From an uncultured bacterium (GTDB lineage Bacteria; Fidelibacterota; Marinisomatia; Marinisomatales; J089), in NCBI GenBank assembly GCA_964535735.1, contig CAZHTM010000001.1:89369-153368 (forward strand): a DNA stretch of 64,000 nt. Reading direction: 5' to 3'. The notes below the pieces were generated by a model. The model saw nothing but the letters and a program-made list of their open reading frames with translations, made no database searches and had not been told where the DNA came from. The first letter of the stretch is position 1, and every line of letters starts with the position of its first letter. Shown piece by piece: positions 1,490 through 13,464 of the stretch. The translations under genes and the position numbers were made by a program.

Positions 1490-3397
1490 ATGACTAATCA
1501 ATACTCAGCGCCTTCGACAATGGTTTACCGACGCGTCACCCGGGAAGTTAGGGTAGGATCAGTGGGAATCGGTGGCCAAAATCCAGTCCGGATTCAATCC
1601 ATGACTACAACGGACACCATGGATACCGAGGCCACGGTGGCGCAATGTATCCGCATGATTGAGGCGGGGTGTGAACTTGTACGCATAACAGCTCCCAGTC
1701 AAAACGAAGCTCGTAACCTGGCGGAGATTCGCAAGGCGCTTCGAAAAAAAGGATACGACACCCCATTAATAGCGGATATCCATTTCACCCCGAAAGCAGC
1801 TGAGATTGCCGCGGAGATTGTGGAAAAAGTTCGGATCAATCCGGGAAATTATGCGGATCGGAAAAAATTTGAGAATCCCACCTATTCCGACGCGGAGTAC
1901 GACGAGGAACTGGATCGAATCCGGGAACGATTCGCACCTCTGGTGGAACGGTGCAAAACCAATGGTGTTGCTATGCGTATTGGGACGAATCATGGCTCAC
2001 TCTCAGACCGTATCATGGGACGTTATGGTGACACGCCTTTGGGCATGGTGGAATCAGCCTTGGAATTTGTGCGGATATGCCGAGACCTGAATTACCATGA
2101 TATTATTCTTTCGATGAAGGCCAGTAATCCGCTGGTGATGGTGGAGGCCAACCGTCTTTTAGTGGAGCGGATGGACGCGGAAGGCATGGACTATCCACTG
2201 CATTTGGGCGTTACGGAAGCGGGTGAAGGAGAAGACGGCCGTATAAAATCGGCGGTGGGGATCGGCACGCTGCTTATGGAAGGAATAGGTGATACAATTC
2301 GTGTTTCGTTGACCGAAGAACCGGAAGCGGAATTGCCTGTGGCCCGTTCTCTGGTTGAACTAGCTACCCGCCCTTTTTCTAAATCCAATGTTGAACAATC
2401 TACATTTCAAATTGCGAACACAATAACAGAACCCAATTCTACAGTAGCGGTGAATTCTATAGGAGGCGAAAACCCACCTCGGGTCATTGCATCTCTGGAT
2501 AAAACGGATCCTCTACAGCCAACGGCACTGGCCGCCATTGGATACCGGTATATCGCAACTCTGGATAAATGGTCCATCAGCGATCAGGCCGCCGATATGG
2601 TATATGTGGGTTCCCATAAACCGGAGTTTCCTTTACCCACAGGATTGACCTTATTATTCTATAAAGAATCTTCGATGGATGGCGTTACCCTTTATTCTTT
2701 GAGTGAACTGTCCCAGGTAGAAGAGAACCGGCCCGTTGCTTGCCTAGTTCAGGAAGAAGAGGTGCTAAACGGAATTCCCACTGAAATCTGTGATTTAAAA
2801 AACCTTATTTGGATATTTGACTATCCAACCTCCGATCCACTGACCGCTTGGCGCCGAATGTTTGAAGCGCTTCGATCCCAAGGGAATCGTCAACCGGTGA
2901 TCTTGCGTTATACGTCACAGCAACCGGAAGATCGCTGGCTTCTGGAAGCAGCGGTTCACATCGGCGGACTTTTTCTGGACGGACTGGGGGATGGAGTATG
3001 GCTGGATGTGTTTGAACCATCCCGATCGGTAGGTGTGGCATTTGGGATCCTTCAGGCGGTCCGGGCTCGCATATCGAAAACGGAGTATATATCCTGCCCC
3101 AGTTGTGGACGTACCCTGTTTGATCTTCAGGAAACCACGGCGCGGATTCGTTCTCGCACTTCACACCTAAAAGGCGTTAAAATTGGTATTATGGGGTGTA
3201 TCGTCAATGGTCCCGGAGAAATGGCCGATGCCGACTATGGCTATGTGGGCACCGGGCCTGGAAAAATTGCCCTGTACAAAGGGCAGGAAGTGATACACCG
3301 AAATATTTCCGCCGATCAAGCGGTCGATCAATTGATTGATTTGATCCAAACCCACGGGGATTGGGTGGACCCTCCTAATCCCGTAGAGGAAAGTTGA
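1490..3397 (+). CDS. ispG: 4-hydroxy-3-methylbut-2-enyl diphosphate synthase (IspG/GcpE), long form with inserted domain
   Basis: N-terminal TIM-barrel text GGQNPVRIQSMTTTDT...GCELVRIT. C-terminal 4Fe-4S module CPSCGRT...GCIVNGPGE. A ~270-aa insert between them, as in long-form IspG. Confidence 0.9.
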   Translation: MTNQYSAPSTMVYRRVTREVRVGSVGIGGQNPVRIQSMTTTDTMDTEATVAQCIRMIEAGCELVRITAPSQNEARNLAEIRKALRKKGYDTPLIADIHFTPKAAEIAAEIVEKVRINPGNYADRKKFENPTYSDAEYDEELDRIRERFAPLVERCKTNGVAMRIGTNHGSLSDRIMGRYGDTPLGMVESALEFVRICRDLNYHDIILSMKASNPLVMVEANRLLVERMDAEGMDYPLHLGVTEAGEGEDGRIKSAVGIGTLLMEGIGDTIRVSLTEEPEAELPVARSLVELATRPFSKSNVEQSTFQIANTITEPNSTVAVNSIGGENPPRVIASLDKTDPLQPTALAAIGYRYIATLDKWSISDQAADMVYVGSHKPEFPLPTGLTLLFYKESSMDGVTLYSLSELSQVEENRPVACLVQEEEVLNGIPTEICDLKNLIWIFDYPTSDPLTAWRRMFEALRSQGNRQPVILRYTSQQPEDRWLLEAAVHIGGLFLDGLGDGVWLDVFEPSRSVGVAFGILQAVRARISKTEYISCPSCGRTLFDLQETTARIRSRTSHLKGVKIGIMGCIVNGPGEMADADYGYVGTGPGKIALYKGQEVIHRNISADQAVDQLIDLIQTHGDWVDPPNPVEES

Positions 3398-4067: not shown

Positions 4068-5609
4068 ATGTTAGCTCGTGTATTAAGTAGTGCGATCTTA
4101 GGGATCGACGCCTATATAGTAGAAGTAGAGGCCAATCTGACCCGCGCCCAATTGCCCAAGTTTATCACTGTAGGATTGCCGGAAGGCGCCGTTAGAGAAA
4201 GCAAGGAACGGGTACTTACCGCCATTAAAAATTCCGGATTTGAAATCCCCAGACAACATATCACCGTCAATCTGGCGCCAGCGGACATTCGCAAAGAGGG
4301 ATCGGCCTTCGATTTACCTATTGCCATTGGCATTTTGGCCGCCCGAGGCTACGTGAAGCACGATTATTTAAATAAACTGCTTTTTTTAGGTGAATTGGCT
4401 TTGGATGGAACCATTCGCCCGGTGAAAGGAGCCCTACCAGTGGCCATTTGCGCCCGTAAAGAGGGTATTGCCGGTTTGATTCTTCCTGATGAAAATGCGG
4501 TAGAGGCCGCCGTTGTGGGGCAGGTAAAGGTGGCCGGTGTGAAGCGCTTGAGGGAAGTGGTGGATATTTTAAACGGCCAAAGCCCCATAACGTCCGTACG
4601 GGTCAATCGGAAAAACTTGTTCAATCAAAATCAACGTTACTCGGTAGATTTTTCTGATGTGAAAGGCCAGGAGCAGGTGAAACGGGCTCTGGAAGTAGCG
4701 GCGGCGGGGAGTCATAATGTCATCATGATCGGTCCCCCGGGAAGCGGAAAAACAATGTTGGCGAAGCGCCTTCCCACCATTCTTCCTGACATGGTTCTGG
4801 ACGAAGCTCTGGAGACCACTAAAATCCATTCCGTTGCGGGAATCCTCCCTGAAGGCCAAGGGTTAATCGCAACTCGGCCGTTCCGGTCTCCGCATCACAC
4901 CATTAGCGACGCAGGGCTGATTGGTGGAGGTACGATTCCCAAACCTGGGGAAGTATCCCTGGCGCATCATGGTGTGTTGTTTTTGGATGAATTACCGGAA
5001 TTCAAGAAAAATGTATTGGAGGTTATGCGCCAGCCCCTGGAGGATGGGAAAGTAACCATCTCTCGGGCGACGGTTTCATTGACGTACCCGTCCCGATTCA
5101 TGCTGGTTGCGGCCATGAATCCTTGCCCTTGTGGTTATGCCACTGATCCGCGCAACGATTGTACCTGTACGGCTCCCATGATTCAGAAATACATGAGCCG
5201 CATTTCCGGTCCTTTGTTGGATCGAATTGACATTCATATTGAAGTACCCGCCGTTCCCTTCACCCTGCTGGCGGAAAAAGCTCCGGGAGAGCCCTCCCAT
5301 GTGATTCGGGAGCGGGTTCAGCGAACCCGCGATCGCCAGCTTATGCGTTTTAAGGATGAAGCGGGACTTTTCGCCAATTCGCAAATGGAATCCAATCATC
5401 TTCGGAAATATTGCACCTTGGATACGACTGCCGCTGATCTCTTAAAGAAGGCCATGGAACGCCTGGGACTTTCCGCCCGCGCGTATGATCGTATTTTGAA
5501 GGTATCCCGGACCATCGCGGACTTGGAGGATGCTTCTGAAATCACCTCCGAACATATTGCGGAAGCGATTCAATACCGTAGTTTGGATCGGCAATTATGG
5601 TTGGGGTGA
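4068..5609 (+). CDS. comM: YifB/ComM family Mg-chelatase-like AAA+ ATPase
   Basis: Typical N-terminus MLARV.S.AILGIDAY.VEVE. Walker A GPPGSGKTM, GVLFLDELPEF, Cys cluster NPCPCGY, and the C-terminal ARAYDRILKVSRTIADLE motif. Confidence 0.9.
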   Translation: MLARVLSSAILGIDAYIVEVEANLTRAQLPKFITVGLPEGAVRESKERVLTAIKNSGFEIPRQHITVNLAPADIRKEGSAFDLPIAIGILAARGYVKHDYLNKLLFLGELALDGTIRPVKGALPVAICARKEGIAGLILPDENAVEAAVVGQVKVAGVKRLREVVDILNGQSPITSVRVNRKNLFNQNQRYSVDFSDVKGQEQVKRALEVAAAGSHNVIMIGPPGSGKTMLAKRLPTILPDMVLDEALETTKIHSVAGILPEGQGLIATRPFRSPHHTISDAGLIGGGTIPKPGEVSLAHHGVLFLDELPEFKKNVLEVMRQPLEDGKVTISRATVSLTYPSRFMLVAAMNPCPCGYATDPRNDCTCTAPMIQKYMSRISGPLLDRIDIHIEVPAVPFTLLAEKAPGEPSHVIRERVQRTRDRQLMRFKDEAGLFANSQMESNHLRKYCTLDTTAADLLKKAMERLGLSARAYDRILKVSRTIADLEDASEITSEHIAEAIQYRSLDRQLWLG

Positions 5610-5754
5610 TGATCTGTTGATATTTCAGTTAAAAATGCGCAGATGGATTCAGTAAGCGTGTTTTTCCATCGATCATATTTCTTGACTGGCCCAAACGGAG
5701 CGTGTAAACTTGACCTCTAAATAACTCCTAACTGAAAGAAGAGAACACCGATTT

Positions 5755-6195
5755 ATGAAACGATTATTCGTAGTTTCCATTTTCTTATTACTGGTCCAAG
5801 TGGGGTATGGGAATTATGCGTTTTACAGTAAGGTGGAGATTACCTGTGAGGCATATCGCCTGCCTGTTGATCGTTCTGATATGGACTATCGGGATGGCCT
5901 GTTTACTCTGGATTTAAAAAGTCGCAGTCGGAACGATTTTGAGATGGCCATGTTAGTGGGCTTTGCCGCCGTGGGCCGGGCGCAAATTCAACAGCAGGAT
6001 ATGAAAAAATCCAAACCTGATTTCAGTCCCATGTTACCTAAAACGGTTCAGATTGCTGTAACAATTCCCATGGAACGTACCACGACGGTGGTTATCGCCA
6101 CTGCCAGTGGTGAACTGGTGGAGCGCCTGGCACGGGGAGACATAGAAACCACCGAATTCATGCAAATAATTAAAGACACTATTGAAATACATTAA
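5755..6195 (+). CDS. hypothetical exported protein
   Basis: 146-aa ORF with signal-like N-terminus MKRLFVVSIFLLLVQVGYG. No recognised domain. Confidence 0.5.
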   Translation: MKRLFVVSIFLLLVQVGYGNYAFYSKVEITCEAYRLPVDRSDMDYRDGLFTLDLKSRSRNDFEMAMLVGFAAVGRAQIQQQDMKKSKPDFSPMLPKTVQIAVTIPMERTTTVVIATASGELVERLARGDIETTEFMQIIKDTIEIH

Positions 6196-6204
6196 GGAGG
6201 AGCA

Positions 6205-6441
6205 ATGTTAGATCCAACTTCCTGGTCAGGAATTCTATTTTTATATGTCCGCGCTTTGGGTTGGTCCGTCGTCGCGGCCGTCGGCTTTGCGTTTGGCGTA
6301 GGGGTGGCGTTAAAAGTATTTGATTGGCTGTCCACGGATATCGATGAGTGGGAGGAAATCAAAAAGGGCAACATGGGTGTGGCCCTGATTTTTGTTTCCC
6401 TGATTGTAATGGTGGGTTTGTTAATCTATAAGGTTGTGTAA
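6205..6441 (+). CDS. DUF350-type small membrane protein
   Basis: 78 aa with two hydrophobic helices and a central DIDEWEEIKKGNMGVAL motif typical of DUF350. Strong SD (aaggagg) 5-10 nt upstream. Confidence 0.7.
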   Translation: MLDPTSWSGILFLYVRALGWSVVAAVGFAFGVGVALKVFDWLSTDIDEWEEIKKGNMGVALIFVSLIVMVGLLIYKVV

Positions 6442-6463
6442 TTAAAGCAGCCTAAGCATCTAA

Positions 6464-6492
6464 AGAGCCCGGTGTTTCCGGGCTCTTTTTTT
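6464..6492. terminator. intrinsic (bidirectional) terminator between convergent genes
   Basis: Perfect 9-bp stem AGAGCCCGG (6464-6472) / CCGGGCTCT (6478-6486) with a 5-nt loop, followed by a T-run (6487-6492) and preceded by AAA. Lies between the DUF350 stop and the PHP gene stop. Confidence 0.75.
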
Positions 6493-6496
6493 ATTC

Positions 6497-8068
6497 TCAT
6501 TGCACCCAGATTGGATTGGTGTAGGCCTGTCGTCCGGCCTCGGTTTCTACCCAGGCCCGATAATACCCGTTCCCCACATGTGAAGTTGGTGAAAATTCAA
6601 TCGTTTCCTCATAACCAGAGAGGGAACGAGAAAGCAAAATCGTTTCGGCGTTGCCAATTTCACCGTAGTAGAGACGGACCCGTTTAAGCGTGCCCCAGTG
6701 TGAGGAAGATTCAAGATTTAATACAATACGTTTTGCTAGTGAGGTGATGGAATCGCCTATTTGTGCCGATGTATTTTCGCTTTCTAGTTTTAGTTCAATC
6801 GCCGGACCGTCTGTAATGATCGCGCGACCATTTTTTAGTTGGGTTATAACAGATTCAAGAGATAATTCCCCCAATTTCAGAATACCGGTGCGACACTGCC
6901 CCAGAATTTGATTCCGGTGTACCTTGGTGGACCACATGGGAAGCGAAATCTGATGGTAAGCGTTAAAATTACCGTGGGCGTCATTTCCGGCGTAGATGAA
7001 GCGTTTTTCACCGGCCAATAATCCTCGAATCCAGTAGTTCAATCCCTCTTTGAAGGTTTTATCAAAACGGCCATTCAGGATCTGAAAACCGTGGATCGCG
7101 CCGAGACACTTCCGATCAGGATCCTCCCAGATTCCCCGGTTTAACAAAATGCATTCCAGCCGGGATGGTCTGACCCGGGGATGGGCGGCGATAACCAGAT
7201 GTCCATTAGTTATTTTGGAGGCAATTTCTTCAATGGAATGTTCACTGCGGGTACGAAAGGGGTTTTCAGCGCCATCTCCGCTTCCGGGAATAAATGAACT
7301 GAAATCATATACTAGGGTATGGACGTTCTGATCCCGGTGATTTCGCGAGGTAACTTCTTCCGCTGGAATCAGAATCGGCCCCCCGGCGTGATTCAACTCA
7401 GCGATTTCTTCACGCGATTGGTACCAGCGCTGGAGATTTGGATCGGTTTCGGTCCAGGAACCAGGCCGGTCATCCAGATCGTAGGAATGATCCGTGATTG
7501 CCAGGAAGTCCAGTCCCAAAGCGCGGCAGGCCTTTTTTGTTGCTGGGAGAGAGGCCCCGAATTCCACGAAATCCTCAGTATAATGGGAATGATAATGGAG
7601 GTCTCCCCACCAATAAGATGATGAACCAGGCAAAGGATCGGGATCAGTAAAAATGTCAAGATCGAAGGGAGGAGAGGTGGGCACATTGTGGTTGTGTATT
7701 ACTTTCCTCCCGAAAGGCCCCTTGATATGGATGGCGACCGATAGTCGTAGGGCGGTTCCTGTAGCAGGCTGCGGGATGGTAAATGTCGTATCAAACCAGG
7801 GGGTATTCAGATCTCGATAAATTTCAAAGTCATGATTTATAACGGTAGGTCCACCATGAATAGTGATGGCCACTTTCTCAAGATGAATGGGAAAACGGTG
7901 AGCGTCTTTTATTAATAGGGTAACTGGGATATCTTCACCGGGGCCGACTCGAAAGGGCGCATCGGCATACACTTCAGGTTCACGGCGGAAATAGCGGCTG
8001 AAAGGAAGAAACCAGAACCGATGATGGAGTTCCAAATACCCTAAAATTGGAAAAAAAATCGGATCCAA
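6497..8068 (-). CDS. PHP-domain (CehA/McbA-like) metal-dependent hydrolase
   Basis: WWGDLHYHSHYTEDF...LDFLAITDHSYD and later AAHP...GNDAHG His/Asp motifs are typical of the PHP fold. An N-terminal ~150-aa region is unassigned. Confidence 0.65.
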   Translation of the reverse strand: MDPIFFPILGYLELHHRFWFLPFSRYFRREPEVYADAPFRVGPGEDIPVTLLIKDAHRFPIHLEKVAITIHGGPTVINHDFEIYRDLNTPWFDTTFTIPQPATGTALRLSVAIHIKGPFGRKVIHNHNVPTSPPFDLDIFTDPDPLPGSSSYWWGDLHYHSHYTEDFVEFGASLPATKKACRALGLDFLAITDHSYDLDDRPGSWTETDPNLQRWYQSREEIAELNHAGGPILIPAEEVTSRNHRDQNVHTLVYDFSSFIPGSGDGAENPFRTRSEHSIEEIASKITNGHLVIAAHPRVRPSRLECILLNRGIWEDPDRKCLGAIHGFQILNGRFDKTFKEGLNYWIRGLLAGEKRFIYAGNDAHGNFNAYHQISLPMWSTKVHRNQILGQCRTGILKLGELSLESVITQLKNGRAIITDGPAIELKLESENTSAQIGDSITSLAKRIVLNLESSSHWGTLKRVRLYYGEIGNAETILLSRSLSGYEETIEFSPTSHVGNGYYRAWVETEAGRQAYTNPIWVQ

Positions 8069-8537: not shown

Positions 8538-10019
8538 TCAGATCAGAAGGTAGAGCGTCATCAGAGCGCCGCTAAATGTGTTCAAAAGGTTAACCATATC
8601 GTTATCCATCCATTTCCAGCCCCGGACGTGAATAGTGGGATATCCATCCAGGGTACGTTTTTCAGTGAGGGTGCCCGTTTTTTCACAGCGATACATTGAT
8701 TGGAGTGTACCACCCAAAATGGAGTCCAGAAGACTTCCTAAAAAACCAGCAACAACTATTACCATGCACAGTTGCCATGAAAGATCATAATACCAACCGA
8801 GGGAAGCTATGACGGTGGCTCCGAGGAAAGCACCTGTAAATCCGAGCATCGTAACGCCTCCCGACATCCCCCGTTCCAATTCACGTCCAGTGAGTATGTG
8901 TCGTGGTTTATGGGAACTAAAAAAACCAATTTCTGTAGCCCAAGTATCCGCCGTGGCCGCGGCGATCGCTCCTAAAAATACCGGATAGTTCCAGGACCAG
9001 GACGGGTAATAAAAATGAATTATTGAAATGACGGTGGCCAATCCGCCATTTGCCAGAACTTGGGTAAAATCCCGTTGTGAACCTTTCTGAGTAAAATGAT
9101 TTTTATGTTGGCCAATACGGGAAAGCAGTGAGCTGAGGATGAAAAAGAGAACAAAGGGTGCGGTCCATTGCCATCCCCCGGAGCCGAAAACGATGATGCC
9201 CATTAAAAAGGCGACTACGCCACCGCTTACACTCAGGGAGCCCAGCCGGATTGACAATCCCAGCAGGAGGGCGGACGCTATCCACCAAATCAGCCACACG
9301 TCCAGGTGATGCAGGACCTGGTTCACGATAAACAGGTCCGTCATGAGTGCCGCTAATAGGGGAACGGAAAGATTATCAGACCCTCGATTGCTAATCCCTT
9401 CTCCAAGCATGACCGTTGCGGCCATCAATAGGGAAAAGATGAATTTGCTTCCTAGGGTTAATAACGCTGAGGTGGCAAAAAGGACAGACGCTAGTAGCGT
9501 GATTACAAAAGCGGTAATAAATACCGCCATGGATCCTTCCAAGGATTTGGTATCCCGCCACAATTGGTAACGATGAGGGGCAGGAATTCTTTGACCGATT
9601 ATAGAACCGGCCGTATCGGCAAACGTCATCATCAATAATCCTACCATGAGGGAAAGTGGACGGGACCATTCAAAATAAACCAGGATTAAGTAGCTTAAGG
9701 GAAAGAAGACGGTGCCGTAACTGATTCGCCCGGTTCCATGCAATCCGGTGAAGACAGATTGTCGCAGAGCCACTAGATTCAATATGATGAAAATCCCGGC
9801 CAGAACCATAGGAGCAGTCGAATTCCGGAAATATAGCGGTGAAATCGAGACTGCAATCCCAACGGCAACATGAACCAATTTCCGAGTAGATTCCGGGGAC
9901 CAGTGGAATCGGTTTCGCGCGAATTCGCTGAGTCCGATAAGTCCACCAATGAGGACCAGAACAACGAAAAAGGTCGCCCAGTCACTTGAAAAGGGTTGAT
10001 AATGATAGAACTGCATCAT
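8538..10019 (-). CDS. fusion: CTP-dependent polyprenol/phytol kinase-like domain (VTE5/DolK family) + DUF92/TMEM19 (VTE6-like) integral membrane domain
   Basis: The N-terminal half has FADTAGSIIGQR...KSLEGSMAVF (SEC59/VTE5-type signature). The C-terminal half has ATADTWATEIG and GMSGGVTMLG (DUF92 signature). Polytopic throughout. Confidence 0.65.
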   Translation of the reverse strand: MMQFYHYQPFSSDWATFFVVLVLIGGLIGLSEFARNRFHWSPESTRKLVHVAVGIAVSISPLYFRNSTAPMVLAGIFIILNLVALRQSVFTGLHGTGRISYGTVFFPLSYLILVYFEWSRPLSLMVGLLMMTFADTAGSIIGQRIPAPHRYQLWRDTKSLEGSMAVFITAFVITLLASVLFATSALLTLGSKFIFSLLMAATVMLGEGISNRGSDNLSVPLLAALMTDLFIVNQVLHHLDVWLIWWIASALLLGLSIRLGSLSVSGGVVAFLMGIIVFGSGGWQWTAPFVLFFILSSLLSRIGQHKNHFTQKGSQRDFTQVLANGGLATVISIIHFYYPSWSWNYPVFLGAIAAATADTWATEIGFFSSHKPRHILTGRELERGMSGGVTMLGFTGAFLGATVIASLGWYYDLSWQLCMVIVVAGFLGSLLDSILGGTLQSMYRCEKTGTLTEKRTLDGYPTIHVRGWKWMDNDMVNLLNTFSGALMTLYLLI

Positions 10020-10088: not shown

Positions 10089-10865
10089 GTGAAAATCAAA
10101 TGGAGAATCGGTAACACCCCGATAGTCTGGATCATCTATGTATTCTGTTTTATAACGGCTCAGGTTCCCGTTTGGAACCGGCTACCCCTGGACCGATTAA
10201 CGGAGGCCAAGGGAGTTTCAGAAGCCGGTCAACTCCTAATCCAACAGCCCCTTGGGTGGACCGAGATTACATATCCCTCCACCAATTATGATACCCTTTG
10301 GATTGTCGTGCATGGATATGGTTCCCGAGGGTATGAGTGGGTAGACGCTATCAAAGATTTCTGCATCACGGGAAAAGGCGTATTCTTTTATCGTTACGAT
10401 TGGTCCCGATGCCCGGAGGATATTGTGGATTCATTGAGTCATGAATTTCCGGAACTGATTCACCACATCACTCCCCAACCGGAACATGTGATTGTGTTTG
10501 GCCACAGTTACGGTGCTTTGATTGTGGCCATGTTGAATGCCTGTATTGATCTTCATATACCCATGGAATTCCATGCCATTGCCGGTCCATTGGCGGGCAT
10601 GAAGGGATTCCAGGATCGCTGTACCTGGGACCAATCCTGGATTGCAGAAACCAGTCAGAATGGGACCGGTATGCGTCTCCATCAATGGCGGACAGTAAAG
10701 TCTCAGGATGGTGCCTTTCGAGATGCAGAAAGAGATCCTCAGGATGTGAATATCCCCGGTAGTACTGTTATCCAATTACCCAAAGTGATGGATGGTCACC
10801 GGCTTGGGCATAACTGGTCCGTATTGTGGGTAGTTGAAACCTATTTGGGATTGCGATCTCAATAA
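10089..10865 (+). CDS. alpha/beta-fold hydrolase (lipase/esterase-like), exported or membrane-anchored
   Basis: GTG start with hydrophobic N-terminus. Nucleophile elbow GHSYGA (GxSxG) preceded by VVHGYGSRG. Confidence 0.65.
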   Translation: MKIKWRIGNTPIVWIIYVFCFITAQVPVWNRLPLDRLTEAKGVSEAGQLLIQQPLGWTEITYPSTNYDTLWIVVHGYGSRGYEWVDAIKDFCITGKGVFFYRYDWSRCPEDIVDSLSHEFPELIHHITPQPEHVIVFGHSYGALIVAMLNACIDLHIPMEFHAIAGPLAGMKGFQDRCTWDQSWIAETSQNGTGMRLHQWRTVKSQDGAFRDAERDPQDVNIPGSTVIQLPKVMDGHRLGHNWSVLWVVETYLGLRSQ

Positions 10866-10996
10866 ATAAATTGACGCACGTTGTAAGGCGTCAATCGCGA
10901 TTAGGGCATTCTACCTGTTGCAAAGACGCCAAAGGCCATAATCGGCTTAAATGGGTGATATAGAATTATTTATAAGTATCATGTTGGAACTATAAT

Positions 10997-11155
10997 ATGG
11001 CAAAGTACAAATTCCTGCTCATTGGATTTTGCATGACGGTGGCGCAGCTCCAGGCTGGCGTCTAGTATTTGTCCACCACCGGTAACGACACTACCAATAA
11101 TGGTCTAACCGAGACAGGCGCATTTGCCACAGTAAACCGAGCCATCAACTCGTAG
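10997..11155 (+). pseudogene. remnant of an exported beta-helix (DUF1565-like) protein gene: signal peptide + N-terminal motif, in-frame TAG, then truncated
   Basis: ATG 10997 gives MAKYKFLLIGFCMTVAQLQAGV, then TAG (11063) and, in the same frame, YLSTTGNDTTNNGLTETGAFATVNRAINS, then TAG (11153). The Y.S..G.D.N.G....PF.T...A motif is typical of parallel beta-helix protein N-termini. The REP array begins right after. Confidence 0.35.
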
Positions 11156-11198
11156 AAGAAATCGGGAGGATGTGTTGTAAAGATTTAATCCACGATTC

Positions 11199-11597
11199 CG
11201 CAAGGTCTCCTGACCTTGCGAGGACACTAAAAACAGAAGATAAAATTCGTTATATTATTCCGGGTGGGGGTAGTGTTTTTGTTTTTCTGTATGGGTTGCA
11301 GGCTCAGGAGATCCTGCATGATCGAGTCTGTATAGTTTAGATGTATCTAGAGGATTTAATCTGTAAAGCCGGATAAGATCATGATTCGCCAAGGCTTTCT
11401 GATCTTGCGGTAGGATCTGACATTACAATCTAGTTATGGTTCTGAGAGTTGGGTCTGTGTCATCGTTTCCCATTCAGTGTGGGTTGTTGATCGCAAGATG
11501 TATAGAACCAAAGAAATCGGGAGAGGGTATAATCAACGATCCCGCAAGGTCTCATGACCTTGCGGGGATACTACTGGGTCGGGAGATTCTGTGTGAA
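11199..11597 (+). repeat. REP array, left of RAYT (hairpins A1, B1, A2, A3, degenerate B)
   Basis: A1 11199-11220 CGCAAGGTC-tcct-GACCTTGCG. B1 11298-11317 GCAGGCTC-agga-GATCCTGC. A2 11387-11410 (degenerate). A3 11541-11566 CCCGCAAGGTC-tcat-GACCTTGCGGG. Degenerate B around 11578-11597. Confidence 0.85.
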
Positions 11598-11679
11598 AGG
11601 TTTAAGCGATTTAGGTGATACATAAAGGTTTTGCCTGTTGAATAATGGAAATTCAACATGAAGATTCTGACCTGGATAA

Positions 11680-12255
11680 CTATAAACGAAATTCATCGGG
11701 AAAGAAATATTTGTCAGCTTCTTGATATGCGGAAGAGAATGGATAACCGTTAACCTCTTTTGCCAGTTCGCCGCGAACCTGGTTAAGTTCTATGTAATTC
11801 AACTTCTGTTCGAGAATTTCTTCAGATTCAATAATCAACGGTTTATCATCGGATCGCCAGAGGGAAAAGGTATGGTTTTTATCTCGGGGGAAAAACGTAA
11901 GTTTTTTCAAAATGACGCGATGATTAACAAGGACGGGCAAGTTTTTAAAATATGGATGAACATTCACCTGTTGAGATAAAAGAATCCTGTGAACATGTCG
12001 ACCGATGTATTTTTTGAAATCCCTTTGGAAATCCGAGAGTGAATAAGATCCTTCTGGTAACCAAATTATGTAATGTAAATGATTTGGCATGATTACATAA
12101 GAATAATACTTTATGTTTTTCGTTTTGCGATAGTACTCCCAGGTATTATAGATGAGGTTTAGAATCTTTTCATAACAAAAAACAGGGAGCCAAAAACGAA
12201 CGGTATTAGTGAGAAAATAGATGTGACCTGCGTCTTTAATCCAATAACGTTTCAT
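11680..12255 (-). CDS. REP-associated tyrosine transposase (RAYT; IS200/IS605-like Y1 HUH transposase)
   Basis: 191 aa. HUH motif in YVIMPNHLHYIIW. Catalytic Tyr region KLNYIELNQVRGELA (equivalent to YI..NPV). No partner TnpB, and REP hairpins lie on both flanks. Confidence 0.85.
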   Translation of the reverse strand: MKRYWIKDAGHIYFLTNTVRFWLPVFCYEKILNLIYNTWEYYRKTKNIKYYSYVIMPNHLHYIIWLPEGSYSLSDFQRDFKKYIGRHVHRILLSQQVNVHPYFKNLPVLVNHRVILKKLTFFPRDKNHTFSLWRSDDKPLIIESEEILEQKLNYIELNQVRGELAKEVNGYPFSSAYQEADKYFFPDEFRL

Positions 12256-12341
12256 AAATTAGTCTGAAAAAACGAAAATTTTCGGAAGAAAAATGATTCT
12301 TATATTTAAAATTACGAAAGCAAAAGCTAATAAATCATGAT

Positions 12342-12758
12342 CCCGCAAGATCCCCTAACCTTACCTTGCGGAGGGATGAGATCAATTCAACAGGGTAATA
12401 ATATTTCGAAGAATGGGGTTAGTATCTCAATATCCCGATCAAAAAGAGGCTATGTGGTCACAGGATCGGGAGATCCTGTGAAATAGGGGTAATGTATAGT
12501 CAACGATCCAGCAATGTTACATAACTTTACTGAGAGATGTAATATGGTTGCAGGATTAGGAGATCCTGAGTGACCTAGATGGTATAGTTTGTGTGGTTCT
12601 TAAGGATTTAGTCTGTAAAATCGGATAAGATCATGATTCAGCAAGGTCTCATGACCTTGCTGGGACACCGAAACAGAGGATGAAATTCGTCTATTATTCC
12701 GGGTGTAGGCCTAGTGTCTTAGTTTTCCGTTCTGGGTCGCAGGATCAGGAGATCCTGC
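12342..12758 (+). repeat. REP array, right of RAYT (A4, B2, A5, B3, A6, B4)
   Basis: A4 12342-12374 (degenerate). B2 12459-12480 CACAGGATC-ggga-GATCCTGTG. A5 12509-12532 (diverged). B3 12550-12569. A6 12639-12662 CAGCAAGGTC-tcat-GACCTTGCTG. B4 12739-12758 GCAGGATC-agga-GATCCTGC. Confidence 0.85.
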
Positions 12759-12795
12759 ATGATCAGGTTGAGTGATCAAGGTGATTTGTAGAGGT

Positions 12796-13464
12796 CTATA
12801 CTGTCGAATAATTCGCGTCGATCCAGGTTCGGAGTTCCTTTGGGGTTTCCATAATCAGATCAGCTCCAGCGGCCTCTAATTCTTGGCGATTCCGAAAGCC
12901 CCACCCAGCACCAATAGCAAAGACTCCTGCTGCTCGTGCGGTCTGCATATCCGTATCCGTATCTCCGACGTAGAGAATACGGTTCAGATCAATATTCCAG
13001 GTCTTAGCAATCTCATGAATACCGGCAGGATCCGGTTTAAGGGGACGATTATTGCTGGCACCAAGGAAAGGATTAATAGGCCATTGAGAGAGATAGAGGG
13101 TCCGATTTAAATCGGCGTATTCCTGGTATTTATTTGTGAGAACCGCTAACCTAAAACCAGTTTCCGTAACGTGATCCAATAACTCAGGTATTCCTGAATA
13201 TATGTGAGTATGGTCCATCCAATGATTTCCATAATCATCTCGAAATTCCTGACCAATTGTAATGAGTAAAGGATCGGCCGGATTCAAACCCGTTGCCTGG
13301 TGCAATAAATTGGCAACGCCTTTACCAATAAATTGGCGGTAACTCTCAATGGAATGAGGGGGTAGGTGATGCCGTTCCAAAACCCGGTTCAAAGAGTAGG
13401 CAATATCCTCCAGGGTATCCAGGAGAGTTCCATCTAGGTCGAAGATAATTCCGGAAGAATTCAT
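12796..13464 (-). CDS. HAD-superfamily hydrolase (phosphoglycolate phosphatase-like)
   Basis: Motif I IIFDLDGTLLDT, motif II LTNK, motif IV YVGDTDTDM. Overlaps the upstream GMC gene by 4 nt (ATGA). Confidence 0.8.
   Translation of the reverse strand: MNSSGIIFDLDGTLLDTLEDIAYSLNRVLERHHLPPHSIESYRQFIGKGVANLLHQATGLNPADPLLITIGQEFRDDYGNHWMDHTHIYSGIPELLDHVTETGFRLAVLTNKYQEYADLNRTLYLSQWPINPFLGASNNRPLKPDPAGIHEIAKTWNIDLNRILYVGDTDTDMQTARAAGVFAIGAGWGFRNRQELEAAGADLIMETPKELRTWIDANYSTV

Follow-up and report, generated by a model that had tools for sequence, protein, structure and literature searches.

A RAYT Gene Within an Array of REP-Like Hairpins in a Genome of the Fidelibacterota

Fidelibacterota (Marinimicrobia) are an abundant uncultured lineage of the FCB group. 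The 64-kb stretch of DNA from one such bacterium that is analyzed here (part of contig CAZHTM010000001.1; hereafter the window) contains a 1,930-nt gap between two genes (10866-12795) in which a single credible open reading frame (ORF) is surrounded by short palindromes, and the question raised by this locus is whether the ORF and the palindromes belong to one system and, if they do, to which kind. REP-associated tyrosine transposases (RAYTs) are single-copy Y1 nucleases flanked by repetitive extragenic palindromes (REPs) or by REPINs (REP doublets forming hairpins) (PMC5581495). The locus is very probably a REPtron, that is, a RAYT gene inherited vertically in single copy, with its cognate REPs on either side. 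The REPtron is a known class, previously undescribed in Fidelibacterota; no paper on the window hairpin or on REPs in Marinimicrobia was found in the literature, and the hairpin sequence gave unrelated primer matches only. If the locus is read correctly, REP/RAYT systems with a clear anatomy now extend to the Fidelibacterota (Marinimicrobia).

The hairpin array and its REP type

Eleven hairpins lie around the ORF, five of them downstream and six upstream of the gene, and the count of at least 11 palindromes given in a preliminary description of this DNA is therefore borne out. Hairpins of form A, (C)GCAAGGTC-TCCT/TCAT-GACCTTGC(G), are intact at 11199, 11543, and 12640 and degenerate at 11388, 12344, and 12510; those of form B, GCAGGATC-RGGA-GATCCTGC, have copies at 11298, 12460, 12550, and 12739 and a degenerate one at 11574 (Table 1). 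When the window was searched for the two patterns with up to three mismatches allowed and the counts were compared with those in shuffles, pattern A gave 4 matches (0.18 expected) and pattern B gave 7 (0.13 expected; these are five sites, two of which matched on both strands); all lie inside the island, and in neither case did any shuffle equal the count. A covariance model (CM) built from 30 related hairpins and run over the full window with filters off found seven copies at E ≤ 1e-4 and another two with E values of 0.2-0.3, and outside 11190-12768 it found nothing better than E = 0.49; the earlier reading had likewise noticed these hairpins in no other intergenic region of the window. The most degraded copies, at 11388 and 11574, are visible only by unit-level alignment. 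The hairpin array is real and not a product of chance. Two further sites, 11156-11175 and 11511-11530, were considered as remnants of B and rejected; alignment to the orthologous locus of a relative (L005, discussed below) identifies them as remnants of a repeat of the 3' end of the neighboring HAD gene.

The palindromes had also been described as lying all in one orientation and belonging to two families, and this part of the description is refuted by their sequences. If A is read as its reverse complement, GCAAGGTC-AGGA-GACCTTGC, it departs from B, GCAGGATC-AGGA-GATCCTGC, at two base pairs, both of them compensatory, and a GATY foot stands 5' of A on the plus strand (e.g., cGATCC followed by CGCAAGG) and, on the minus strand, 5' of B (e.g., GATCAT followed by GCAGGATC). 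B is an inverted A with its foot on the opposite strand, and the array therefore alternates in orientation. The CM prefers the corresponding strands, giving the A copies 42-46 bits on the plus strand versus ~15 on the minus strand and the B copies 34-43 bits on the minus strand versus ~10 on the plus strand; this preference is partly circular, the model having been trained in that orientation, whereas the training has no bearing on the foot or the asymmetric loop. Of the proposed two-hairpin organization like that of a bacterial interspersed mosaic element (BIME), the BIME-like plan stands and the two kinds of hairpin do not: judged from its sequence, the array is made of a single REP type whose copies alternate in orientation and have covarying stems, on the BIME/REPIN plan.

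When all copies are oriented alike, the REP consists of a GATY foot (mostly GATC), a ~10-bp stem (9-11 bp) whose top is fixed as GRTC...GAYC, and a TCCY loop (TCAT in two copies). This is a compact definition of the putative substrate, and the natural variants of the stem, A and B in the window and in addition C and D in a more distant relative, show which positions vary. Each window hairpin folds by itself as single-stranded DNA. Doublets in the window are spaced A-78 nt-B; the A6-B6 doublet is closed by GATCAT/ATGATC, and folding of 12625-12775 as single-stranded DNA gives z = -3.75. In an alignment of 30 distinct hairpins drawn from three genomes, 96% of the cells pair and six of the ten pairs contain double compensatory changes, and the number of doubly changed cells is 53 versus 15 in shuffles (none of 500 shuffles reaches 53), with the limitation that this set was picked by six paired stem-top positions, so that only the outer four pairs are unbiased. 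Slid controls of the same alignment pair in only 20-37%. GATC at columns 5-8 of the alignment is at least 90% conserved, and GATY may well be the guide or foot for the enzyme, by analogy with the tetranucleotide of the TnpA-REP substrate, which is probably a guide, as in IS608 (PMC8266576).

The RAYT protein and its inheritance

The preliminary description of a 1.9-kb gap between two genes with one ORF is correct, and the two motifs that it named, PNHLHYII (HUH) and LNYIELNQVRGE (Tyr), are both present exactly in this 191-aa ORF. The HUH motif NHLH occupies residues 58-61 (H59/H61), and the catalytic-type tyrosine is Tyr154 in YIELNQ. The protein passes the NCBIfam model NF047646 (REP_Tyr_transpos) marginally, with 80.5 bits against a cut-off of 80, and the NCBIfam scan found no other family and no IS200 model at E ≤ 0.01. 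In a sequence search of the PDB up to E = 10 the sole match is E. coli TnpA-REP (4ER8; E = 1.4e-5), and with an AlphaFold2 model of the protein (pLDDT 86.8) the best Foldseek match is again 4er8_A (E = 2e-7), followed by the ISDra2, IS608, and IS200 transposases. An alignment of 20 homologs shows no variation at H59, Y154, and N158 and very little at H61 (at least 90% conserved). Family model, sequence match, and predicted fold all support a RAYT-like protein and not an IS200 TnpA, and with it the original assignment of the ORF as a RAYT, a domesticated Y1 transposase. The homolog search returned 1458 representatives at E ≤ 1e-3 and three at E ≤ 1e-30; the RAYT family is large, but the branch of the window protein is sparse.

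There is one RAYT copy in the 64-kb window, and the four contigs on record that encode this protein all represent the same locus; the term single copy as used here covers the window and the contigs on record. Several identical copies of the whole unit, which had been named as the mark of an ordinary insertion sequence (IS), were not seen in the available sequence. The orthologous locus L005, in a record named "FCB group bacterium," encodes a RAYT that is 84% identical to the window protein, and the two genes share 88.5% nucleotide identity, with dS 0.33 and dN/dS 0.23. Both loci have the same neighbors, genes for a GMC oxidoreductase, a HAD-family protein, and an alpha/beta hydrolase, and the non-coding core conserved between them belongs to an A-gene-A block (window 11514-12364) that is 86% identical over 855 nt. 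On this comparison the RAYT gene is single copy, vertically inherited, and under purifying selection. Selection is purifying overall, and each of the two orthologs has changed at one position of at least 90% conservation: the window protein carries Pro159Gln, and the ortholog (P0002) carries Pro57Ser, which replaces a nearly invariant proline adjoining the HUH motif. The Tyr motif accordingly reads YIELNQ in the window and YIELNP in the ortholog; it is YIHMNP in the pseudogene of a relative described below. The name of the L005 record and the existence of a Candidatus Neomarinimicrobiota relative with the same hairpins support the FCB-type placement suggested earlier for this DNA; to call the lineage little studied was an overstatement, RAYT subclass 2.6 having been described mostly from Bacteroidetes, which lie within FCB.

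Related hairpins and comparison with known systems

Hairpins of this type are dispersed in the relatives. L005 has a doublet of a degenerate A and a B (7253-7350) at 2.6 kb from the RAYT gene, past two genes and adjoining a gene for an IS110-family transposase (5566-6591). In the Candidatus Neomarinimicrobiota (= Fidelibacterota, FCB group) metagenome-assembled genome (MAG) JALUTR01 and the metagenome Ga0256830 to which it belongs, the exact A hairpin occurs 10 times on at least six contigs; the pattern GCAAGGTC-N4-GACCTTGC by itself is very general, with ~139 chance matches expected in the 596 Gb of genome contigs. At these sites the CM finds ~31 hairpins, placed between long ORFs. They form composite units, C (GTTCATGGTC-GGGA-GACCATGAAC) - 30 nt - A (TGCAAGGTC-TCCC-GACCTTGCA) - 25-45 nt - B (GGATC-GGGA-GATCC), in alternating orientation; stem variant D is also present, every copy has a GATC foot, and the copies are nearly identical to each other. 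The RAYT copy found in this relative (L154 = L014, 437-1172) is 53% identical to the window protein. It is a pseudogene, broken by frameshifts and by an insertion of ~150 nt that comes just after the HUH strand and contains the palindrome TTCTCCCCT-ATTAC-AGGGGAGAA. The preliminary description had allowed for hairpins that occur nowhere else beside an IS200-like ORF; what is found is hairpins dispersed in a relative and an ORF that is RAYT-like. Viral contigs scanned for the hairpin gave no match and hence no sign of a phage vector. The three related genomes (the window with an intact RAYT and an expanded array, L005 with an intact RAYT and a minimal array, and JALUTR01, in which the sole RAYT copy found is a pseudogene, with many homogeneous dispersed REPs) constitute a small natural experiment on the rise and decay of REP populations and their RAYT.

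The system probably works like, and belongs with, RAYT subclass 2.6 (Quentin et al. 2018), which is group 5 of Bertels et al. (2017), membership being judged from motifs. Proteins of this subclass have the motifs NH[LIV]H, WQ, and YIH[QN]NP, are ~179 aa long, and come mostly from Bacteroidetes; atypical non-GTAG hairpins flank their genes and recur at other places in the genome, and many of the REPs in Table S1 for this subclass have TCCT, TCT, or TCC loops (PMC6006769). The same table gives the REPs of Flexibacter litoralis as CTGG-CGCAAGGT-TCT-ACCTTGTGC and CTAG-CGCAAGAT-TCT-ATCTTGTGC (PMC6006769), a pair very like window A and B, including a covarying G:C to A:U position. The window protein shares with the subclass NHLH, a length of ~180-190 aa, a tail with an SS motif (YPFSSA), a low copy number, and non-GTAG hairpins, and most of its homologs found have YIH[NRDQ]NP. 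It differs in having YIELNQ (YIELNP in the ortholog) and WR in place of WQ, and the system differs in its GATY foot, where the subclass has the GCTAG or CTGG type, and in its Fidelibacterota-like, not Bacteroidetes, host.

The E. coli K-12 REPtron (tnpA-REP/yafM), in which Y and Z2 REPs stand in inverted pairs (PMC6006769), resembles the window locus in its single RAYT, its REP variants on both sides, their covarying stems, and their alternating orientation; its protein (4ER8) is the best match in sequence and in fold, yet the identity in the fold-search alignment is only ~18%. The REP of E. coli combines a GTAG foot with a long, bulged stem, whereas the window REP has a GATY foot, a perfect 9-11 bp stem, and a 4-nt loop, and E. 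coli has hundreds of dispersed REP copies, whereas their number looks low in the Fidelibacterota relative. The Pseudomonas REPIN-RAYT systems (groups 2 and 3) likewise use an inverted REP doublet as the unit and have a single-copy, vertically inherited RAYT flanked by REPINs (PMC5581495). The spacer in the present doublets is long by comparison (78 nt in the window, 25-45 nt in the relative), the relative's units are three-hairpin C-A-B composites, and there is no sign of a large REP population. Class 3 (Y----Q, CnGA foot, Planctomycetes) was considered on account of YIELNQ and of the CCGA/CTGA that precedes the stem, and it was rejected because the orthologs have NP and the HUH motif is NHLH, not NHVH.

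The exact A hairpin also flanks RAYT homologs of only 28-33% identity, namely nine further genes at eight loci on digester and other metagenome contigs (L130, L133, L140, L160, L171, L177, L180, and L188), which were found through the hairpin search and so are a biased sample. Its orientation relative to the RAYT gene is the same in 10 of 10 cases, the relative's pseudogene locus included. The lineages in which it stands beside such divergent homologs are Fidelibacterota-like, Anaerolineaceae-like, and other metagenomic ones. Among three homolog loci fetched without this bias, one shares the stem top (L197, GTTGGTC-AGGC-GACCAAC) and the other two have unrelated palindromes. Genomes named Anaerolineaceae have the same hairpin form, and Planctomycetota MAGs (e.g., Gemmataceae JAXMAU01, at least 15 loci) have inverted doublets of GTGGCAAGGTC-TCCC-GACCTTGCCAC and GTGGCCCGGTC-TCCT-GACCGGGCCAC; no RAYT was found by tblastn and hidden Markov model search in the 8-kb planctomycete hairpin loci, which is a weak negative since a RAYT is single copy. 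It is conceivable, though the chances seem rather against it, that the REP core ..CA.GGTC-TCCY-GACC.TG.. is an old recognition element of one RAYT clade across phyla or has moved with the gene. The usual picture is that REPs evolve fast and are specific to the species, one for each RAYT, with nothing but the tetranucleotide foot in common. An old shared core, if real, would conflict with that picture, and the recurrence of one hairpin core beside very divergent RAYTs in several phyla is the most interesting loose end of this analysis.

Some details of these distant loci may be recorded here. The JAXMAU01 doublets (L025, L033, L034, L042, L046, L058, L066-L068, L084, L090, L102, L112, L115, and L124) have (c)TGTT on the 5' side and GACCG ~8-10 nt past the stem on the 3' side. 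At L140 (3971-5051 and 9359-10199), cttGTT-CTTGCAAGGTC-TCCY-GACCTTGCAAG-ggttttGACCG flanks two RAYT paralogs with 88% identity at a distance of 5 kb from each other; on digester contigs L147 and L189 the same hairpin forms gene-less arrays, spaced at 72 and 226-236 nt. The coding sequence of the homolog P0004 at L195 itself contains the palindromes GCCGGATTC-g-GAATCCGGC and GCGGGATTC-g-GAATCCCGC, and these recur downstream of it (3296-3347 and 5491-5538), which recalls the REP insertions within genes of subclass 2.4; a second Y1_Tnp-like gene (L195 412-930) lies near it.

Array growth, proposed mechanism, and alternative explanations

The L005 array consists of one B-A unit upstream of the RAYT gene and one A with a degenerate B downstream; in the window, three A/B pairs lie upstream of the gene and two to three downstream. 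A unit of ~190 nt, non-REP spacer included, was copied to give the additional window units, which also carry ~25 nt of the HAD 3'-end repeat. Because non-REP flanks were copied along with the hairpins, the local growth is read as recombination; the array looks to have grown or shrunk by recombination or segmental duplication between REPs and not by precise transposition. In L005 the repeat measures 65 nt (9703-9767 versus 10719-10783, 89% identity). It is a direct repeat of the HAD 3' end, stop codon included, that brackets a 951-nt cassette B-A-RAYT-A, and ~25 nt of its second copy are kept in the window beside A3 and A1. Y1 transposition makes no target duplication and would not by itself explain how the RAYT cassette arrived in L005. 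The locus is a rearrangement hot spot. Its HAD gene is split (9083-9759), and radical-SAM-like ORFs (CxxxCxxC, apparently frameshifted; 10794-11949), which the window does not have, lie between the RAYT and the hydrolase gene.

How the protein might act on the hairpins is suggested by E. coli, S. maltophilia, and Marinomonas TnpA-REP, which would make it a monomeric Y1 HUH enzyme that binds the folded hairpin in single-stranded DNA (PMC8266576 and PMC3479197). For TnpA-REP, the folded single-stranded REP is a ligand and its inverse is not; the enzyme requires the 5' tetranucleotide and cuts at a nearby CT or CA (PMC8266576). By this analogy the window enzyme would read the loop, the stem top, and the 5' foot of the REP and would cut nearby through Tyr154, forming a 5'-phosphotyrosine link; rejoining of the strand would then spread or rearrange REP doublets. 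Binding and cleavage of the hairpins by the window RAYT may thus be expected from its relatives. This particular copy may be active now, although Gln159 and several degraded hairpins make that uncertain.

A number of observations weigh against a REPtron of this kind. The ORF scores 18.5 with Pfam Y1_Tnp, below that model's own cut-off of 23, and reaches the NCBIfam REP_Tyr_transpos cut-off only just. In the window protein Gln occupies position 159, where the class-2 Y---NP signature has a Pro of at least 90% conservation, and four of the 11 hairpins are degenerate. The other 62 kb of the window contain no hairpin copy beyond the island; dispersal is seen in the relatives, and the view of the bacterium's own genome is that of the 64-kb window. 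The array units were duplicated with their non-REP flanks, which points to recombination and not to RAYT-mediated transposition, and the covariation set carries the selection for paired stem tops noted above. Several of these features would suit a decaying relic, in which RAYT and hairpins are inactive in this lineage and the array has been shaped by recombination and drift alone: the Gln in place of a nearly invariant Pro159, the degraded hairpins, the lack of copies in the other intergenic DNA of the window (~22 further gaps, ~4.6 kb summed), and the copied flanks. The Ser in place of the nearly invariant Pro57 of the ortholog and the state of the RAYT copy in the next relative, a pseudogene with frameshifts and the 150-nt insertion, fit the same explanation. 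However, the reading frame of the window gene is intact with a dN/dS of 0.23, seven hairpins are well formed and have compensatory differences, and the near-identical REP copies of the relative suggest recent spread, so that a relic seems unlikely.

It is quite improbable that the locus is an autonomous IS of the IS200/IS605 type, of which the ~850-nt A-gene-A unit would be the mobile part, the two A hairpins the subterminal ends, and the other hairpins debris. The RAYT locus does have the Y1 HUH fold of the class 1.1 TnpA proteins and their logic of subterminal hairpins with a 5' tetranucleotide guide. The innermost A hairpins lie in the same orientation and form, with the gene, the one block conserved in L005; a 65-nt direct repeat of what would be the target, the HAD 3' end, stands on both sides of the L005 cassette; and L140 has two hairpin-gene-hairpin units within 6 kb. 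Those two L140 copies, however, are just 88% identical, and a target duplication is not a product of Y1 transposition. The gene itself is single copy and occupies the identical chromosomal site in two genomes at dS 0.33, it matches no IS200 model, its best structural relative is TnpA-REP, and gene-less hairpins are dispersed in the relative. IS200/IS605 elements have DH[VI]H and Y[IV]ENQ motifs, occur as multiple near-identical copies, and often include tnpB (PMC6006769), whereas the syntenic window gene has NHLH and YIELN(P/Q) and no tnpB nearby, and its orthologs have the class-2 Y---NP and not the Y---Q of IS200 (PMC6006769).

That the hairpins are host regulatory elements (terminators, mRNA stabilizers, or protein-binding sites) with a Y1 gene nearby by coincidence is hardly credible, even though the HAD, hydrolase, and RAYT genes have them at their 3' ends and PMC3479197 ascribes such secondary roles to E. 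coli REPs, since no T tracts follow the stems, promoter and terminator scans gave no enrichment (two terminator-like sites found versus 1.7 expected), no Rfam family is matched, and the hairpin co-occurs with RAYT homologs in unrelated lineages in one orientation throughout.

Table 1. Features of the candidate REPtron and its borders (window coordinates)
Feature	Position	Strand	Basis or remark
RAYT (TnpA-REP-like Y1 HUH nuclease), 191 aa	11680-12255	-	NF047646, 4ER8, AF2/Foldseek, conserved residues
REP A1, cGATTC-CGCAAGGTC-TCCT-GACCTTGCG	11190-11225	+	CM 45.8 bits, E = 1e-11; exact pattern; DNA fold -10.9 kcal/mol
REP B1, inverted relative to A, minus strand GATCAT-GCAGGATC-TCCT-GAGCCTGC	11292-11327	-	CM 33.6 bits, minus strand
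Degenerate REP A2' (GCCAAGGCTTTCTGATCTTGCG)	11388-11410	+	Homology of units 11294-11480 / 12546-12737; weak fold; CM-negative
REP A3, cGATCC-CGCAAGGTC-TCAT-GACCTTGCGGG; ortholog of relative's downstream A	11534-11569	+	CM 46 bits; inside 855-nt L005 block
Degenerate REP B3'	11574-11593	-	3 mismatches to pattern B; homologous degenerate copy in L005
Degenerate REP A4', 5-nt insertion; ortholog of relative's intact upstream A	12335-12375	+	CM 23.1 bits, E = 1e-4
REP B4, minus strand ACAGGATC-TCCC-GATCCTGT	12454-12489	-	CM 38.6 bits; fold -10.1 kcal/mol
Degenerate REP A5', 5' flank aacGATCC kept	12501-12536	+	CM 12.6 bits, E = 0.18
REP B5, partly degenerate	12550-12569	-	1 mismatch to pattern B; partial CM match 11.8 bits
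REP A6, tGATTC-AGCAAGGTC-TCAT-GACCTTGCT	12631-12666	+	CM 42.4 bits; exact pattern
REP B6, minus strand GATCAT-GCAGGATC-TCCT-GATCCTGC; inverted doublet with A6	12733-12768	-	CM 43.1 bits
Weaker remnant of HAD 3'-end repeat, abutting A1	11150-11189		Alignment to L005
Remnant of HAD 3'-end repeat, abutting A3	11505-11533		Aligns to L005 10719-10745, itself a copy of L005 9703-9767
Alpha/beta hydrolase gene	10089-10865	+	Left neighbor of gap
HAD-family phosphatase gene	12796-13464	-	Right neighbor of gap

The Rfam scan gave only a sub-threshold chance match (asX2, 21.7 bits versus a threshold of 70). It overlaps a hairpin, TTGACGC-N10-GCGTCAA at 10872-10895, that is not REP-related and lies directly 3' of the hydrolase stop codon.

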